28,467 bases of DNA, from the NCBI GenBank assembly GCA_964573925.1, contig CAZNLX010000001.1:1-28467 (forward strand), written 5' to 3'. The first letter of the stretch is position 1. Every line of letters starts with the position of its first letter. The stretch is from an uncultured Intrasporangiaceae bacterium (GTDB lineage Bacteria > Actinomycetota > Actinomycetes > Actinomycetales > Dermatophilaceae). Both the position numbers and the translations under genes were made by a program. A model generated the notes under the pieces. The model was given only the letters and a program-made list of their open reading frames with translations, did no database searches and was not told where the DNA came from. This document shows positions 2 to 7,257 of this stretch, in pieces.

Positions 2-448
2 CGCGTCCAGCGCCAGATGCTGCAGGATCTGGGTCGCGAGCCCACCCCGGAGGAGCTGGCCAAGGAACTCGACATGACCCCCGAGAAGGTCGTCGAGGTG
101 CAGAAGTACGGTCGCGAGCCGATCTCCCTGCACACCCCGCTCGGTGAGGACGGCGACAGCGAGTTCGGTGACCTCATCGAGGACTCGGAGGCGGTCGTGC
201 CCGCCGAAGCGGTGTCCTTCACCCTGCTCCAGGAGCAACTCCACTCGGTCCTGGACACCCTTTCCGAGCGCGAGGCGGGCGTCGTCTCGATGCGCTTCGG
301 ACTCACCGACGGCCAGCCCAAGACCCTCGACGAGATCGGCAAGGTCTACGGCGTGACCCGAGAGCGGATTCGCCAGATCGAGTCCAAGACGATGAGCAAG
401 CTGCGGCACCCGTCGCGCTCGCAGGTGTTGCGCGACTATCTGGACTGA
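2..448 (+). CDS. sigA: Principal RNA polymerase sigma-70 factor (SigA/HrdB/RpoD), 3' part only (regions 3-4); 5' end lies outside the window
   Basis: Translation has [39 protein letters not shown], the region 4.2 [23 protein letters not shown] and the group 1 C-terminus [16 protein letters not shown]. The frame is open from base 2. Confidence 0.93.
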
Positions 449-514: not shown

Positions 515-2848
515 TCAGCGGCGTCGGCCCCACCACGCGCGGGGCCGCGCGCCGAGCCGACGTCCCAAGGCCCGCCACCAGCGACGGGCGTCGGTGGGCA
601 ACATCGTCGCCCGGATCCGGTGCTGCCAGGACCGGGTCCTCGCGACCTCGTGGAGCACCACCCGAGTGAGCGGTTCGAGGTGCGGGTCGACGAAGGCCCC
701 GGGCCGGGCGTAGCGAGCCCGTTCGACGGTGTCCACGACGGTCGCCAGCGACTGCGTCCCGGTTTCCCCGAGGAAGCCGGCGCGGGCGTAGTGAGCCTGG
801 GCATCGCGCAGCGTCCCCCCGGCAACGGGGGTGACGCCCAGATCGTCCAACCGGCCGGTGAAGGTCTGCCAGTGGGCCTCGGCGATCCGCGCCGGCGGGC
901 CAGGTCGGCCGGCCCGCACCCGGCGTAGCACCGCGGCGGTCACCGGCAGGACAAGGGCGGCCAGGACGACCAGCAGCACGACCAGTCCGAGCAGGTGCGG
1001 GACCTGCAGCACCCAACCGAGGACCCGGTCCAGCACCGGGACGTCGAGGGTGGTGGTCTGTTCGGACGGGGTCTCTCGGTCGGGGCGGTCCCGGTCCCGG
1101 CTGGCTGGGTCGTCGGTGAGCCGGGCCGTCGAGGTCGGCAGCGGTGCGGGGGTGATCGCCGGGAGCGTCCAGGCCGGTGCGTTTCCGGTGCGGACGCTGG
1201 GCGTCGGCTCGAAGCGCACCCAGCCGGCCCCCGGGAAGAACAGTTCGGGCCAGGCGTGGGCGTCGGCGCTGGTCACCGTCCACACGCCGTCCTGCTGGCT
1301 GCCGGGCAGGAAGCCGATAGCCACCCGGGCCGGGATTCCGGCGGCGCGCGCCATCATCGCCATCGTCGAGGCGAACTGGACGCAGTAGCCGCGCTTGGTC
1401 TGCAGGAAGGCGCTGATCGGGTCCGGCCGGGCGCCATTGGACGAGTCCGGCGTCGTCAACGTGAGCGAATAGGTGAACCCGCCCTTGCCGCGCAGCCAGT
1501 CCTGAATCGCCACCGCCTTGTCGTAGGGGGACTGCGACTGCGTGGTCACTGCGTTCGTCGCGTCGCGGATCGCGGCGGCGGACCGAGGATCGACCTCCAG
1601 CGCTGCGGTGATTGCCCGCCCGGTCGGCAGCCGGTCCGGCCCGGGTGAGCCGTCGACGCCGTTGCGCAAGAGGTCCGGGGTGTAGATCGGTTCGAGGTAG
1701 GTCGTTGAGTAGGAAGCGGGCCGGGCCTGCACGTAGACGTCCGAGGTCGACTCGTCCACTTGCCAACCGACCGCATTGAGGTCGGCCGTCGTGATCGGCT
1801 GCGGGGTGGCCAGCGCGGGCGGTTCGAGCGAGTTGTTCTCCACGACGATGGTCCGCTCCGAGCGGGCTACCTCGGGGGAGAGGTCCAGCCGGGCGCTGCG
1901 GCCCAGGGTCGGGTTCGGTCGGCTCCAGGACGTCCCGTCGTATGCCGTCGCCGCGAGGACTCGCAGCGGCGTCGGGCTGGGCGCCGTGCTGCGGTAGGTG
2001 AGAATCCGCCCGGAACCGCCGGCGTTGAGGCTGGTCCCGACGTCCAGGGTCGAGCTGAAGCCGACCTTGGCGTTGCCCCGTCCGTCGGCGCTGCGGGCCA
2101 GTCCGTCCAGCAGGTAGCGGGTCGGCAGATGGGGCAGCACGGCTGGGAGGGCAACCGCGGCGATGAGGCCCACGGCGCCCAGCCGGCGGGCCAGCCCGGC
2201 GAAGCGCAGTTCCGAGGTGGCTCGGGAGGCGCCGATCGCGATGGGTTCCATCGGGCGGACCGCCACCGAGGCCCACCGGCGCATGCCCTGTTGGGCATGC
2301 TGGGCCAGCAGCACCAGCCAGGCGAGGGCGGCGGCCAGGAAGTAGAAGGGGTGCAGGGCCGACCCGCTGTTCGCCGCGGCCGCCAAGAAGGCGGTGAGCA
2401 TCGGCAGACCGGCCGCCGCCGGGGCCCCTCGGGTGACGGCGAGGATGTCGACGAGCAGCACGACGGCCGTTCCGATCAAGGCGAGGGTGACCTCGACCCC
2501 GGTGTTGGCCGGCATCGGTGCCGAGGTGTTCACCGCGGTCGTGCCGAATTCGGCGAACAGGGCACCGAACCGGCGCACCGTGGCCAGAGTGGGCAGGCCG
2601 TACCAAGTGCTGGACCCGGCATACATCCAGACAACGGCGAGCAGGGTGACGACGATCTGGCTCGGCACGACGGCCACGGCGGACCGGGTCCAGAACCGGC
2701 GCACGAGGGCCCCGGCACCGACCGCGAGGACGACCAGCCAGATCGCCCGGGCGAACCAGGTCGTGGTGGCCACGAGGGTGGTCAGGCCGAGCAGCGAGGT
2801 GAGTCCGGCCACCGCAGCGAGGGCGGGGTGGGCTTCGCGGCGGTTCAT
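515..2848 (-). CDS. Membrane-anchored transglutaminase-like protein (TgpA/DUF3488-type), about 777 aa
   Basis: Multiple N-terminal hydrophobic helices, the transglutaminase core GYCVQFASTMAMMARAAGIPARVAIGF...DAHAWPELFFPGAGWVRFEPTP (Cys/His/acidic residue), then a C-terminal TM helix. ATG at 2848 overlaps the DUF58 stop (ATGA). The ORF-track extension to 3415 overlaps DUF58 and is not credible. Confidence 0.88.
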   Translation of the reverse strand: MNRREAHPALAAVAGLTSLLGLTTLVATTTWFARAIWLVVLAVGAGALVRRFWTRSAVAVVPSQIVVTLLAVVWMYAGSSTWYGLPTLATVRRFGALFAEFGTTAVNTSAPMPANTGVEVTLALIGTAVVLLVDILAVTRGAPAAAGLPMLTAFLAAAANSGSALHPFYFLAAALAWLVLLAQHAQQGMRRWASVAVRPMEPIAIGASRATSELRFAGLARRLGAVGLIAAVALPAVLPHLPTRYLLDGLARSADGRGNAKVGFSSTLDVGTSLNAGGSGRILTYRSTAPSPTPLRVLAATAYDGTSWSRPNPTLGRSARLDLSPEVARSERTIVVENNSLEPPALATPQPITTADLNAVGWQVDESTSDVYVQARPASYSTTYLEPIYTPDLLRNGVDGSPGPDRLPTGRAITAALEVDPRSAAAIRDATNAVTTQSQSPYDKAVAIQDWLRGKGGFTYSLTLTTPDSSNGARPDPISAFLQTKRGYCVQFASTMAMMARAAGIPARVAIGFLPGSQQDGVWTVTSADAHAWPELFFPGAGWVRFEPTPSVRTGNAPAWTLPAITPAPLPTSTARLTDDPASRDRDRPDRETPSEQTTTLDVPVLDRVLGWVLQVPHLLGLVVLLVVLAALVLPVTAAVLRRVRAGRPGPPARIAEAHWQTFTGRLDDLGVTPVAGGTLRDAQAHYARAGFLGETGTQSLATVVDTVERARYARPGAFVDPHLEPLTRVVLHEVARTRSWQHRIRATMLPTDARRWWRALGRRLGARPRAWWGRRR

Positions 2849-4188
2849 CGGATCACTCCGGCGCCGGCTCCCACACCGGCTCGCGCCGCGGCTGCCGTGC
2901 CGACCCGGCCCCAGGCCTGGGTCACCGTGTCGGCGGCGGTCACCGCGGTGGCCCGCCAGCCGGCACCGCGCAGAATGTCGACGGCTCGGGCCGCCCCAGC
3001 CCCTGGCCCGCTGGCTGCCGGGTCGCCCGGGTTGGCGGGCCATGGACCGGCGCCGCCGATGCCGCTGGCGCCGCCGCTGCCGCCGGCGAAGGAGGCCGGA
3101 TCCAGGACCAGCCCCACGGCGGTCGCGCCGCCATGACGCAGGGTCGCCACCGACCGTAGGGCGGCCTCGTCGGCCGCGGCCAGGATCGCGACGAGCAAGC
3201 CCCCGCCGGCCAGCAGGCCCTGACCTGACCGAGCCAGGCGAGCCAGGGACAGCGCGTCGTCGAGGGCGGTCACCGCCAGCACGTCCAGTGCGGTGGCCCG
3301 GTCCAGGGGAACCTCGTCGGGACCCTCCCGCACCGTCTCCGGGGTGAGCAGGTGAACGGCATAGCCGAGGGTCCCCAGGTGCACGACGGTCGAGGCCGCC
3401 GCGCTCACCGCCCACTCGAAGGAACTGGCCGGGCCGCTGCCGGCGTGCGCGGCGCTGCGCGGGTCGAGCAGAACCACCGCTCGGCGCCGGGCCGGTCGGT
3501 CCTCCTGACGGACCATGAGTTCACCGGTGCGAGCCGTGGCCGGCCAGTGGATCCGGCGCAGGTCGTCTCCGTCGCGGTACTCCCGGATCGACTGGTCGTC
3601 CTCGCCGTTGAGGGCCACCATGAACGGGATCTCACCTTCGGCGCCCACTCCGGTGCCCGGAGGCCTGGTGCCCCCCAGGGGGTGGACCCGAGGAAGCACG
3701 GTCACTTCGGACGCCGACCCGACCTCGACGAAACGCTGGGTCAACCCGAACGGGTCGCGCAACTGAACGGTGAGCGGACCGAGCAGGTGACGGCCGCGGA
3801 TCGGGGGGCGCACGGCATACGTGACGGCTCGACGCTCCCCGCGGCCGAGCGAGCCGAGCAACACTCGCGGGCGTTCGCCGATGACATAGTCCAAGCGCTC
3901 CTCGGCGAGCATGATCGGGGTCGAGTGCCGGCCACCGTTGGCGATCGTCGTGGTGACTGTCGTCGGGTCGCCGGCGCTCACCTGCGCCGGGTCGGTGGAA
4001 CGGGTGACGACCAGCCCCGGAGGCCGTCGACGGGCCAGCAGCAGGGCCAGCAGCGGCAGGGCCAGCAACAGCACGCCAACCCGGGTGATATCCCGGAAGC
4101 CCAGGAGGTAGCCGCAGACGAGCAGGGTCAGCCCGGCGGACCCGAAGGCCCGACCTCGGGTCGTGAGCACCTCACCGATGCCGCGCAC
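2845..4188 (-). CDS. DUF58 domain protein (MoxR-associated), 447 aa
   Basis: N-terminal TM segment, RGRHLLGPLTVQLRDPFGL, and the DUF58 signature SIREYRDGDDLRRIHWPATARTGELMVRQE. It sits between moxR and the transglutaminase gene, the usual triad. GTG start. Confidence 0.88.
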   Translation of the reverse strand: MRGIGEVLTTRGRAFGSAGLTLLVCGYLLGFRDITRVGVLLLALPLLALLLARRRPPGLVVTRSTDPAQVSAGDPTTVTTTIANGGRHSTPIMLAEERLDYVIGERPRVLLGSLGRGERRAVTYAVRPPIRGRHLLGPLTVQLRDPFGLTQRFVEVGSASEVTVLPRVHPLGGTRPPGTGVGAEGEIPFMVALNGEDDQSIREYRDGDDLRRIHWPATARTGELMVRQEDRPARRRAVVLLDPRSAAHAGSGPASSFEWAVSAAASTVVHLGTLGYAVHLLTPETVREGPDEVPLDRATALDVLAVTALDDALSLARLARSGQGLLAGGGLLVAILAAADEAALRSVATLRHGGATAVGLVLDPASFAGGSGGASGIGGAGPWPANPGDPAASGPGAGAARAVDILRGAGWRATAVTAADTVTQAWGRVGTAAAARAGVGAGAGVIR

Positions 4189-4222: not shown

Positions 4223-5239
4223 TCAGCGCCGGCCGGCCGGGACGGGGGTGGACCGGAGAATCTCCAGCAGGACGTCCTCGGGCGTGCGGTGGGCCAGGGT
4301 GGCCTCGCCGGAGAGCATCAGCCGATGGCCCAGGACGGCCGGTGCCACTCGCTGGACATCGTCGGGCAGGACGTGGTCGCGAGCCTCGAGAGCGGCGTGG
4401 GCGCGGGCCGCCCGCAACACGTGCAGGGCAGCGCGGGGGGACGCCCCGAGCCGGACCGCCGGGCTGGTCCGGGTGGCGTTGGCCAGGTCGACGACGTACT
4501 GGCGCACCGCCGGTGCTGCGTAGACGTCCTGGGTGACCAGGACGAGCCGGGCCACCGTCTGTGCGTCGGTCACCGGCACGAGAACGTCCAACGGCGATCG
4601 CCCACCGTGCAGGTCGAGCATCTCGACCTCGGCCGCGGCCGACGGGTAGCCCATCGAGATCCGGGCCATGAACCGGTCCCGTTGGGCCTCGGGAAGCGGA
4701 TAGGTGCCCTCCATCTCGATCGGGTTCTGGGTCGCCATGACGATGAACGGCTTGTGCAGGGCATAGGTCGTGCCGTCGACGGTGACCTGGCCCTCCTCCA
4801 TGCACTCCAGCAGCGCAGACTGGGTCTTGGGGGAGGCCCGGTTGATCTCGTCGCCGACCACGACGTTCGCGAAGATCGCGCCGGGTCGGAACTCGAAGTC
4901 GCGCAGGTCTTGGTTGAAGACACTCACCCCGGTGATGTCGCTGGGCAACAGGTCGGGGGTGAACTGGATCCGGCGCACCGAGCAGTCGATGGAGCGCGCG
5001 AGGGCCTTGGCGAGCATCGTCTTGCCGACGCCGGGCACGTCCTCGACGAGCAGGTGACCACCGGCCAGCAGGACGGTGATCGCGGTTCGGACGACTCCCG
5101 GCTTGCCCTCGATGACCGACTCCATCGCGGCGGCGATCCGGGAGGCCACGGCCCGCAGTTCGGCCAGCGCCTCGGGCGTCGAACGCACGACCTCGCCGCT
5201 GGACACCGCCTGCTCGGGTCGGGGCCGGACGTCGCTCAC
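4223..5239 (-). CDS. moxR: MoxR-family AAA+ ATPase, about 338 aa
   Basis: Walker A region HLLVEDVPGVGKT, RIQFTPDLLPSDITG, Walker B VVVGDEINRASPKTQSALLE, ATQNPIEMEGTYPLPEAQRDRF. Start placed at GTG 5239, with GGAGG a few nt upstream. Confidence 0.92.
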   Translation of the reverse strand: MSDVRPRPEQAVSSGEVVRSTPEALAELRAVASRIAAAMESVIEGKPGVVRTAITVLLAGGHLLVEDVPGVGKTMLAKALARSIDCSVRRIQFTPDLLPSDITGVSVFNQDLRDFEFRPGAIFANVVVGDEINRASPKTQSALLECMEEGQVTVDGTTYALHKPFIVMATQNPIEMEGTYPLPEAQRDRFMARISMGYPSAAAEVEMLDLHGGRSPLDVLVPVTDAQTVARLVLVTQDVYAAPAVRQYVVDLANATRTSPAVRLGASPRAALHVLRAARAHAALEARDHVLPDDVQRVAPAVLGHRLMLSGEATLAHRTPEDVLLEILRSTPVPAGRR

Positions 5240-5245
5240 GGGATC

Positions 5246-5261
5246 CTCCACTTCGCTCCAC
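5246..5261 (-). promoter_or_regulatory. Pair of MraZ-type boxes overlapping the moxR ribosome-binding site
   Basis: Minus strand reads GTGGAG-CGAA-GTGGAG, with the same hexamer and 4-nt spacer as the boxes upstream of mraZ. Confidence 0.5.
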
Positions 5262-5370
5262 CGGGGACCCCTTGGCCCGCCCGGTCTGGTGAGCATATGT
5301 CGGCGCGCTGGTCCGGGCGGCCGAACCCGAGCACGAAGCCGGAAGCGGGGGCCGGTGCGCGCGGCATACC

Positions 5371-5386
5371 CTCCACTTCCCTCCAC
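5371..5386 (-). promoter_or_regulatory. Pair of MraZ-type boxes facing moxR
   Basis: Minus strand GTGGAGGGAAGTGGAG is identical over 16 nt to plus strand 5446-5461. Confidence 0.6.
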
Positions 5387-5438
5387 GGCTGTGACCTGCC
5401 ACTTTGCCGTTCGGAATGGAAGTTTGAGAAAGAATCTG

Positions 5439-5491
5439 GCGACAGGTGGAGGGAAGTGGAGTATGGTGGGGCGCCAAGGAGCGTGGTGGCG
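5439..5491 (+). promoter_or_regulatory. mraZ/dcw promoter with 10-bp-phased MraZ-binding repeats
   Basis: GTGGAG (5446), GTGGAG (5456), GTGGGG (5466), degenerate AAGGAG (5476), GTGGCG (5486). Candidate -35 GCGACA (5439-5444), 17-nt spacer, -10 TATGGT (5462-5467) embedded in the repeats, consistent with known MraZ autorepression. Confidence 0.75.
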
Positions 5492-5559
5492 GGTATGCCG
5501 CCCCGCCGGGTCGCGTGGGACGGCCCCCTCGGGGGTCGGGAGGGAAGGGGTGGTGCGTC

Positions 5560-6024
5560 GTGGTCGACGACCAGTTCGCCGCCCTGCCGGTCCCCTTCCT
5601 GGGCACCCACACCCCCAAACTCGACGACAAGGGGCGGCTGATCCTGCCGGCCAAGTTCCGAGAGCAACTGGCCACCGGACTGGTCATGGCCAAGGGCCAG
5701 GAGCGCTGCATCGTCGTCTACCCGATGGCTGAGTTCTATCGATTCGCCGCGCAGATGCAGTCCGCGCCGAGTTCGGTCGCCGGGGTGCGCGACTACACCC
5801 GGGTGCTGGCCTCCAGCGCCTCCCCGGAGGTTCCCGACCGACAAGGGCGGATCACCATCCCCGCGATGTTGCGCGATTACGCCGGCCTGGACCGGGACCT
5901 GGCGGTCATCGGCAACATCAGCCGGGTCGAGATCTGGGACCTGCCCGCCTGGAACGCCTACCTCGCTGAGAAGGAGCCCGGCTTCGCCGCTCAGAGCGAG
6001 GAGGTGATGCCCGGGAGGTTCTGA
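5560..6024 (+). CDS. mraZ: Division/cell wall cluster transcriptional repressor MraZ
   Basis: [23 protein letters not shown] and [10 protein letters not shown] (two AbrB-like repeats), [11 protein letters not shown]. First gene of dcw. The start at GTG 5560 after a purine-rich tract is uncertain. Confidence 0.95.
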
Positions 6025-6036
6025 CCGCTGACGCCA

Positions 6037-6142
6037 CCTGCGCCCAGGTCTCCAGCCGCTTCCGTCCCGACACGACTTCCCCCGTGCCGGGCCGCCAGCG
6101 GTTCGAGAACCCTCCCGAAGCGGATGGGGACCTGAGCGCAGG
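6037..6142 (+). ncRNA. Structured RNA resembling the actinobacterial mraW RNA motif (5' UTR of rsmH/mraW)
   Basis: Outer stem CCTGCGCCCAGGTCTCCA (6037-6054) pairs with TGGGGACCTGAGCGCAGG (6125-6142). CCGCTTC pairs with GAAGCGG. Apical stem CCCGACACG/CGTGCCGGG closes a loop containing CTTCCCC. Position directly upstream of mraW matches the described motif. No covariance model was run. Confidence 0.7.
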
Positions 6143-6267
6143 GCCGTATCGGCCCAGTCCGCGCTCGCCGCCACCCGTCCAGGCCCATCGCTCGTCCAGC
6201 CTCACGGCCCGCACCGACCCCGACGCACCGATCCGCGAACCATCAGATCCACGAACCGGAGCCCCCG

Positions 6268-7257
6268 ATGACCGCCACCCCCGAGCTCGCGCCGCACCAG
6301 CGGCACGTGCCCGTGCTGCGCGAGCGGGTCGTCGAGGTGCTCGGTCCGGCCCTGGCCGCCGACGGCGCGGTCTACGTCGACGGCACCCTCGGCATGGGCG
6401 GCCACGCCGAGAGCGTCCTGCAGGCCTACCCGCGGGCCCGGCTCGTCGGGATCGACCGCGACCCGCAGGCCCTCGAACTGGCCGGGCGCCGGCTGCTGCC
6501 CTTTGCGGACCGGATCACTCTTGTCCACGCCGTCTACGACGAGTTCGCCCAGGTCATTCGCGACCTGGGCATCCCGACCGTCGATGCGGCCCTCTTCGAC
6601 CTCGGGGTCAGCTCACTGCACCTGGACGAGGCCGACCGGGGATTCGCCTACCGAGTCGACGCGCCGCTGGACATGCGGATGGACCAGACCCGGGGTCTCA
6701 CCGCCGCGGACGTCCTCAACACCTACGAGCCCGACCAGTTGGTCCGGATCCTGCGCGACTTCGGCGAGGAGCGCTTCGCTCGGCCGATCGTGCGCGCCGT
6801 GGTCGCTGAGCGCGGCCGGGCTCCGTTCACGTCGTCCGGCCGTCTCGTCGAGTTGCTCCGGAGGGTCGTCCCGGCCGCCTCGCAGCGCAGTGGGGGACAC
6901 CCCGCCAAGCGAACCTTCCAGGCCCTGCGGATCGAGGTCAACGGCGAGTTGGATGCCTGGCGCCGGGCCCTGCCTGCCGCGATCGACCGGCTGAGGGTGG
7001 GCGGCCGAGTGGCCGTGCTGTCCTACCACTCGCTCGAGGACCGGATCACCAAGCAGACCCTCGCCGCCGGGGCCACCTCGCGCACCCCCGCCGGTATGCC
7101 GGTCGAGCGGCCGCAGGACGCGGCATACCTGCGCCCCGTGACCCGCGGAGCCGAGGTGCCCACCGAGGCGGAGATCGCGGCCAACCCGCGCGCCGCGTCG
7201 GCCCGACTGCGAGTGGCGGAGCGAATCCGAGTGACCGACCAGGGGGAGTCACAATGA
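6268..7257 (+). CDS. rsmH: 16S rRNA m4C1402 methyltransferase RsmH (MraW)
   Basis: [77 protein letters not shown]. Confidence 0.97.

Follow-up and report, generated by a model that had tools for sequence, protein, structure and literature searches.

MraZ belongs to the most conserved regulators of bacteria. The operators described for it in E. coli, B. subtilis, and Mycoplasma each comprise just one set of repeats, three or four in number and all in direct orientation. For B. subtilis, the reported repeat is GTGG[A/T]G, with spacers of 4 nt (bioRxiv 10.1101/2022.02.09.479790), and cryo-EM of MraZ from M. genitalium revealed that the residues K13, R15, and R86 contact the boxes (PMC12957436). 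DNA carrying two boxes was bound less well by the M. genitalium protein than DNA carrying four, and MraZ oligomers such as the octamer comprise more DNA-binding units than there are boxes in the promoter; octamer and dodecamer rings are described for MraZ from Mycoplasma and E. coli (PMC12957436). A literature search on MraZ, including inverted repeats and Streptomyces, retrieved no inverted or distal MraZ boxes.

In the locus studied here, mraZ has a MoxR-DUF58-transglutaminase operon as divergent neighbor. In bifidobacteria, the PFNA cluster has a triad of the MoxR-DUF58-TgpA type at its core (PMC8430577), and in mycobacteria moxR1-DUF58 follows ripAB, with MoxR1 assisting the division hydrolase RipA (PMC12067865). 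No link between MraZ and MoxR was found in the literature. The DNA analyzed in the following, called the window, is a stretch of 28,467 nucleotides from an uncultured Intrasporangiaceae bacterium (contig CAZNLX010000001.1, forward strand).

Materials and Methods

Loci containing mraZ were taken from genomes (18 actinobacterial and 21 proteobacterial loci) and complemented by 80 actinobacterial mraZ loci from metagenomes as well as by a few named genomes found via MoxR homologues, resulting in about 100 actinobacterial loci in total. Distances between the promoter-proximal array (module A) and the next inverted pair (pair B) were anchored on box 1 of the array. Inverted pairs were accepted with at most one mismatch at 70–115 bp upstream of this box, for which 88 loci contained enough upstream sequence. 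Close relatives were merged into 53 MraZ clusters at 90% identity.

Genes of the Locus

The genes flanking the operator region are:

515..2848, minus strand: TgpA-like membrane transglutaminase gene (Pfam TgpA_N and Transglut_core)
2845..4188, minus strand: DUF58 protein gene (Pfam DUF58, 1.1e-10)
4223..5239, minus strand: moxR, MoxR-type AAA+ ATPase, 338 aa (Pfam AAA_3, 3.9e-64; AAA_lid_2, 6e-23)
5239-5237, minus strand: GTG start codon of moxR, with the Shine-Dalgarno (SD) sequence GGAGGA at 5249-5244 (read from the sequence)
5560..6024, plus strand: mraZ, presumed regulator, 154 aa from GTG 5560 (Pfam MraZ, 2e-33)

According to Pfam, the minus-strand genes encode an AAA_3 ATPase, a DUF58 protein, and a TgpA_N/Transglut_core protein, i.e., they represent a MoxR(MRP)-DUF58-TgpA operon, and the order moxR-DUF58-TgpA is repeated in L120 and L123–L127. 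The start of the transglutaminase gene was placed at ATG 2848, which overlaps the DUF58 stop codon as ATGA and results in a protein of 777 aa. The longest open reading frame (515-3415, minus strand, 966 aa) would overlap the DUF58 gene by 570 nt, and alignments with homologues start only near residue 188–220 of this longer version. On the plus strand, mraZ is followed by rsmH (confirmed as RsmH by Pfam) and ftsI. The nearest relatives belong to the Dermatophilaceae (Candidatus Phosphoribacter) and show a MraZ identity of about 90%.

Some further observations concern the surroundings. Translation of mraZ apparently starts at GTG 5560, which adds 12 residues (5560-5595) ahead of the usual FLGTH N-terminus, an extension common to the relatives. 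At the left edge of the window (17-448, plus strand), a sigma-70 family protein is represented by its C-terminal part, comprising regions 3 and 4. Between mraZ and rsmH (6029-6136, plus strand), the Rfam mraW RNA motif RF01746 was matched with 31.5 bits (E=2.9e-4) at a gathering threshold of 50 bits; this match does not overlap the box modules.

Box Modules Upstream of mraZ

Three groups of MraZ-type boxes are located between moxR and mraZ:

5246-5261, minus strand: pair C (module C), plus-strand letters CTCCACTTCGCTCCAC, minus-strand reading GTGGAGCGAAGTGGAG, i.e., GTGGAG-CGAA-GTGGAG
5371-5386, minus strand: pair B (module B), plus-strand letters CTCCACTTCCCTCCAC, minus-strand reading GTGGAGGGAAGTGGAG, i.e., GTGGAG-GGAA-GTGGAG
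5446..5491, plus strand: module A, five MraZ-type boxes in a direct array next to the promoter (sequence reading and relatives), with GTGGAG at 5446, GTGGAG at 5456, GTGGGG at 5466, the degenerate AAGGAG at 5476, and GTGGCG at 5486

The sequence of pair B is identical to the reverse complement of 5446-5461, and in A, B, and C alike the spacers comprise 4 nt, resulting in a period of 10 bp. Hexamers of the form GTGG[A/T/G]G, as expected for repeats bound by MraZ, make up the modules A, B, and C, and hexamer and spacer agree with the published repeat, in line with the earlier assignment of the boxes as MraZ-type. With five boxes, only A comprises the at least three direct repeats expected at a mraZ promoter. 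B and C are inverted two-box sites upstream of box 1 (5446); the start-to-start distance to this box is 75 bp for B and 200 bp for C, and the two sites are 125 bp apart from each other. The region thus contains several separated sites sharing one recognition motif, an arrangement that recurs across loci. One example is L120 from the cultured species Oryzihumus leptocrescens, in which A, B, and C are all present.

A search for GTGGAGNNNNGTGGAG with at most one mismatch yielded four matches in the 28.5-kb window, all of them in this region, with 0.32 expected, and none of 100 shuffled windows reached four matches. Both minus-strand pairs pointed out in the first-pass annotation are present as claimed. 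The single hexamer is not enriched over the window as a whole (14 copies found vs. 21.8 expected), and six of its 14 copies fall within the 216 bp of 5246-5461. Exact pairs were found only eight times in 499 kb of actinobacterial DNA outside the regions upstream of mraZ, whereas 65 kb of mraZ upstream regions contained 213 pairs on the plus strand and 78 on the minus strand.

An additional near-pair with one mismatch, GTGGTGCGTCGTGGTC, is located at 5550-5565 (plus strand) and overlaps the mraZ start codon GTG 5560. L001 and L003 have this same near-pair, and comparable start-proximal pairs were seen in about a dozen further loci. It could represent a fourth module or merely a SD sequence plus GTG.

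A generic sigma-70 promoter and terminator scan of 5150-5650 gave no match, which is why promoter elements were assigned on the basis of the sequences TTGAC(C/G) and TAnnnT conserved among relatives. In these, TTGAC(C/G) is found immediately 5′ of box 1 and TAnnGT immediately 3′ of box 2. The corresponding feature of the window is:

5439..5467, plus strand: putative PmraZ core, -35 GCGACA (5439-5444), 17-nt spacer, -10 TATGGT (5462-5467)

Since -35 and -10 flank boxes 1 and 2 in the relatives and in the window, these two boxes would form the putative promoter spacer; box 3 putatively overlaps the -10 element, and boxes 4 and 5 putatively cover the start region. Judged by these assignments, the arrangement of module A is a repressor-type layout. 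Nearly every actinobacterial locus has a direct array upstream of mraZ, and A is kept as a block in relatives. In low-GC freshwater-type loci (L089, L091, L100, and L107–L109), a series of about five direct boxes extends through the -35 element TTGAAA and inverted pairs are absent, which is an alternative operator layout.

Conservation and Helical Phasing of the Inverted Pairs

The first-pass annotation had suggested phylogenetic footprinting of the moxR-mraZ region, and the minus-strand boxes indeed proved to be conserved among actinobacteria. When eleven intergenic regions from Dermatophilaceae were aligned with MAFFT for footprinting, the only conserved islands were C, B together with the adjacent TGACCTGC, and A, the remainder of the spacer being rich in indels. 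Among proteobacterial mraZ loci, direct pairs were found in 20 out of 20 and inverted pairs in none out of 20.

Pair B was present in 45 of the 88 loci, corresponding to 30 of the 53 MraZ clusters. The start-to-start distances between A and B fell into classes of 75–78 bp (33 matches), 86–89 bp (nine matches), and 97–99 bp (six matches), and therefore changed in steps of about 11 bp; one secondary match was situated at 109 bp, and none at 79–85, 90–96, or 100–108 bp. At the level of the 30 clusters, with close relatives collapsed and the remaining loci treated as independent rather than in a tree-aware manner, as in all phasing tests of this study, a Rayleigh R of 0.87 was obtained, which none of 20,000 uniform nulls reached. 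Ten clusters were shifted from the 76-bp class by 0.88–1.16 or 1.99–2.08 turns of 10.8 bp. Several of these nest in groups otherwise belonging to the 76-bp class, so that the changes in spacing are regarded as independent events. A strong bias was also observed for orientation: of the upstream pairs located more than 60 bp out, dozens are on the minus strand, i.e., inverted, vs. a single direct pair on the plus strand at 142 bp.

Phased B pairs also occur where mraZ has no moxR neighbor (L011, L012, L013, L015, and L018); loci of this kind come from Frigoribacterium, Schumannella, two other Microbacteriaceae-like or low-GC loci, and an Egibacteraceae MAG. Judging from this distribution, pair B is an element belonging to mraZ and not to moxR. 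At up to one mismatch, B is missing in 23 of the 53 clusters, and a relaxed search with two mismatches in loci without B gave nine matches, of which five were in phase and four were not, a small sample. As B is missing in these 23 clusters and C in about half of the loci, neither of the two pairs is obligatory. Two other explanations for pair B were rejected. A mirror-image divergent promoter would require a -10 element after B on the minus strand, and no such element is conserved beyond the closest relatives; a functionless remnant of an inverted duplication is contradicted by the conservation of B in 30 MraZ clusters despite diverged flanks.

Pairs of the C type were found in about 32 of the 63 moxR-linked loci, down to a MoxR identity of 61%, and follow the consensus GTGGAG-CGAA-GTGGRG. 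Their distance to the moxR start codon varies between 2 and about 200 nt. The distance between B and C ranges from 49 to 235 bp and likewise shows periodicity: when a single exact C was counted for each locus (n=21), R amounted to 0.69 at 10.8 bp and was reached by none of 5,000 nulls. Phasing was also detected for the distances between A and C (n=31, p=0.002). By this comparative evidence, all three inter-site distances, A-B, B-C, and A-C, are held to helical repeats.

According to the first-pass annotation, the box at 5246 doubles as SD sequence. This is correct for the window, where the SD GGAGGA of moxR lies inside the second box of pair C; the second C box is the moxR SD in L002, L006, L008, and L017 as well. 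As a full account of C it fails, since the pair persists away from the SD. In L001, L003, L004, and L005, GGTGGAGCGAAGTGGAGG is located 65–77 nt upstream of a moxR start equipped with its own SD GGAGGAAC, and no start codon follows the pair; C as a mere SD was therefore rejected.

In L052 and L056, three tandem inverted pairs at 23-bp intervals, each interval made up of the 16-bp pair and a 7-bp gap, are found in the moxR leader about 190–240 bp upstream of box 1. L066 contains three inverted pairs at 24-bp and 10-bp offsets about 220–255 bp upstream of box 1. These tandem pairs suggest that the two-box pair is the functional unit.

A second conserved motif accompanies pair B:

5392..5399, plus strand: conserved TGACCTGC motif (TGACCTG(C)), 5 nt after B (comparative evidence)

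TGACCTG is located 5–6 nt from B in 34 of the 45 B-containing loci and 54–56 nt before box 1. It shifts together with B in the class of 87 bp and is also found in loci devoid of B. A second regulator probably binds this motif, and such a factor might account for part of the fixed geometry between A and B. MtrA was shown to bind the mraZ promoter in Dietzia (PMC9602371); any likeness between TGACCTG and the sites of MtrA is impressionistic.

A Proposed Three-Module Operator and Alternative Explanations

Equivalents of the box-contacting residues K13, R15, and R86 are kept in the MraZ protein of the window (alignment to 9qlr and 1n0e), and K12, R14, and R85 are invariant across an alignment of 14 MraZ sequences. 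From this and from the shared motif we infer MraZ as the binder of A, B, and C. The weaker binding to two boxes reported for M. genitalium, together with the surplus of binding units in MraZ oligomers, fits the idea of auxiliary sites that are weak and rely on cooperative binding.

On balance, we lean toward a reading in which A, B, and C constitute a three-module MraZ operator, where a cooperative and probably looped complex would tighten the autorepression of mraZ and a co-repression of moxR would be incidental. MraZ bound to A would block RNA polymerase at PmraZ, since A occupies the putative -35/-10 spacer and extends across the presumed start site; this would correspond to the autorepression known from E. 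coli and B. subtilis. The oppositely oriented two-box sites B and C, each expected to be weak alone, would increase the occupancy of A when MraZ bound to them contacts the assembly on A or shares a ring with it. Because the modules are separated by whole helical turns, they could touch each other via MraZ oligomers. The looping suggested in the first-pass annotation thereby gains backing from the helical phasing of the A-B and B-C distances, although the 59 bp separating A from B leave little room for a simple loop, so that the DNA would have to be sharply bent or the contact made side by side. In the window, the complex of A, B, and C would additionally repress moxR-DUF58-TgpA.

A more far-reaching version, in which one MraZ ring of 8–12 subunits holds all 5+2+2 boxes and thereby generates a phased double loop of about 250 bp acting as a bidirectional switch, is considered rather unlikely. 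If true, this ring-held double loop would switch dcw together with the divergent gene (moxR-DUF58-TgpA here, murT elsewhere), it would explain why the binding units of MraZ far exceed the three or four boxes known, and it would connect the MoxR-DUF58-transglutaminase triad with the growth of the cell envelope.

The question whether the minus-strand pairs are dedicated operators, placing the MoxR-DUF58-transglutaminase operon in the MraZ regulon as a selected function, concerns the neighborhood of pair C, in which the following element was assigned:

5292..5297, minus strand: putative moxR -10 element TATGCT, 30 nt upstream of C, between B and C

C reads along the direction of moxR transcription, and the sequence TAnnnT at 30 nt upstream of it is kept in the window, L001, L003, L005, and L006. 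The putative moxR promoter would thus lie within the 125-bp segment between B and C, with C at about +24 to +39 and over the SD. Linkage is frequent as well: among about 100 actinobacterial loci, about 63 have moxR-DUF58(-TgpA) as the divergent neighbor of mraZ, at MoxR identities of 61–93%, and C is retained where it is not the SD. All this would agree with dedicated operators. Nevertheless, we regard them as unlikely, since the modules do not depend on moxR: frequency, consensus, and phasing of B and C are similar beside DUF3040, leuS, GNAT, and murT genes, and C is missing from about half of the moxR-linked loci. Far inverted pairs of the C type with the same consensus were found in eight of 18 loci without moxR, i.e., about as frequently as with moxR, and adjoin murT, DUF3040, leuS, or GNAT genes. 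In L012 (2489-2899) and L015 (3290-3706), a co-directional DUF3040 gene is situated upstream of mraZ, and the inverted pair is located between its stop codon and a terminator hairpin. The pair follows the leuS terminator in L061 and a GNAT gene in L077. The gene murT, encoding a peptidoglycan amidation ligase, is the divergent neighbor of mraZ in L098 (1232-2866, minus strand) and L119 (1397-2749, minus strand), with the C-type pair CCTCCACTTCGCTCCAC between both genes in L098. All MoxR homologues retrieved by a search were close relatives, with identities of 71% or more; five of them were examined, and four of these are linked to mraZ. The unlinked one, from Georgenia wangjunii, belongs to a moxR-DUF58-TgpA operon divergent from putA instead of mraZ, and the 175 bp upstream of this operon (L121/L122 2327-2500) contain no box pair, a single case. 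The view that the purpose of the pairs is to place the MoxR operon under MraZ control, as the first-pass annotation had supposed, is thus not borne out.

What persists is a link between MraZ and the MoxR operon that is positional and probably consequential, but not designed. With the putative moxR promoter lying between B and C and the ribosome-binding site lying under C, the moxR-DUF58-TgpA operon of the window is likely to be co-repressed, as a plausible consequence of where the sites are placed; and because actinobacteria carry the modules with or without a moxR neighbor, it would be a side effect and not an evident purpose.

The independence of the modules from moxR, along with the highly variable distance between C and the moxR start, would also agree with B and C being auxiliary operators of mraZ only, leaving moxR without measurable effect and the SD-like GGAGG as a matter of chance. 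Such a restriction to mraZ appears quite improbable to us, given that C overlaps the SD shortly after the putative moxR start site and that a protein complex spanning B and C would be expected to impede transcription from the putative promoter between them.

Very unlikely, finally, is an action of the boxes without MraZ, be it through another protein, through RNA (CCUCC as anti-SD-like or GGAGG as standby sequence), or through a G-quadruplex-type structure. A G4 at the mraZ promoter was proposed for S. aureus, whose G-rich promoter DNA forms such a structure (PMC11796246), the SD region of mraZ contains GGAGGGAAG, to which B would be complementary as RNA, and the binding of MtrA in Dietzia provides another candidate protein; yet the motif of B and C is identical to that of the promoter array, the two-box pair has only three G-runs, spacing quantized in steps of about 11 bp is characteristic of duplex DNA and would not be expected if RNA were pairing, and B lies upstream of the -35 element and, in Microbacteriaceae, downstream of a terminator. 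An Rfam scan of 5100-6400 detected no family at B or C, yielding only the sub-threshold mraW motif downstream of mraZ, and the RNA explanation was rejected.

The proposed three-module operator bears on the question why MraZ forms large rings and on its targets beyond dcw, and phased auxiliary operators offer a concrete and testable architecture for cooperative or looped MraZ binding. For the widespread moxR-DUF58-TgpA operon, the divergent linkage to mraZ and the module in the moxR leader represent a first regulatory handle. This linkage points to a role of the triad in envelope or division biology, which fits the mycobacterial connection between MoxR1 and RipA.

Comparison With Known Systems

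The bifidobacterial PFNA cluster shares the MoxR and DUF58 core with the operon of the window and has a TgpA-type transglutaminase as third gene (PMC8430577). The mycobacterial ripAB-moxR1-DUF58-vWA arrangement shares the core of a MoxR protein of the MRP subfamily and DUF58 (PMC12067865). Neither of these reports ties the genes to mraZ or MraZ boxes, whereas the operon of the window is a conserved divergent neighbor of mraZ.

Looping repressors with auxiliary operators are known from lac (O1/O3), gal (OE/OI), ara (O2/I1), and deo. Traits shared with these are the presence of several sites, an oligomeric regulator, spacing by whole turns, and a promoter between the sites. The likeness is functional only, as MraZ is a ring former of the AbrB/SpoVT type and looping is deduced here from spacing.

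The closest systems remain the MraZ operators of E. coli, B. subtilis, and Mycoplasma, which have the same hexamer, the same 10-bp period, and, like the window, the main array over the mraZ promoter. In contrast to their single set of direct repeats, the window contains two extra inverted, helically phased two-box modules upstream, which the reports consulted on these systems do not mention.
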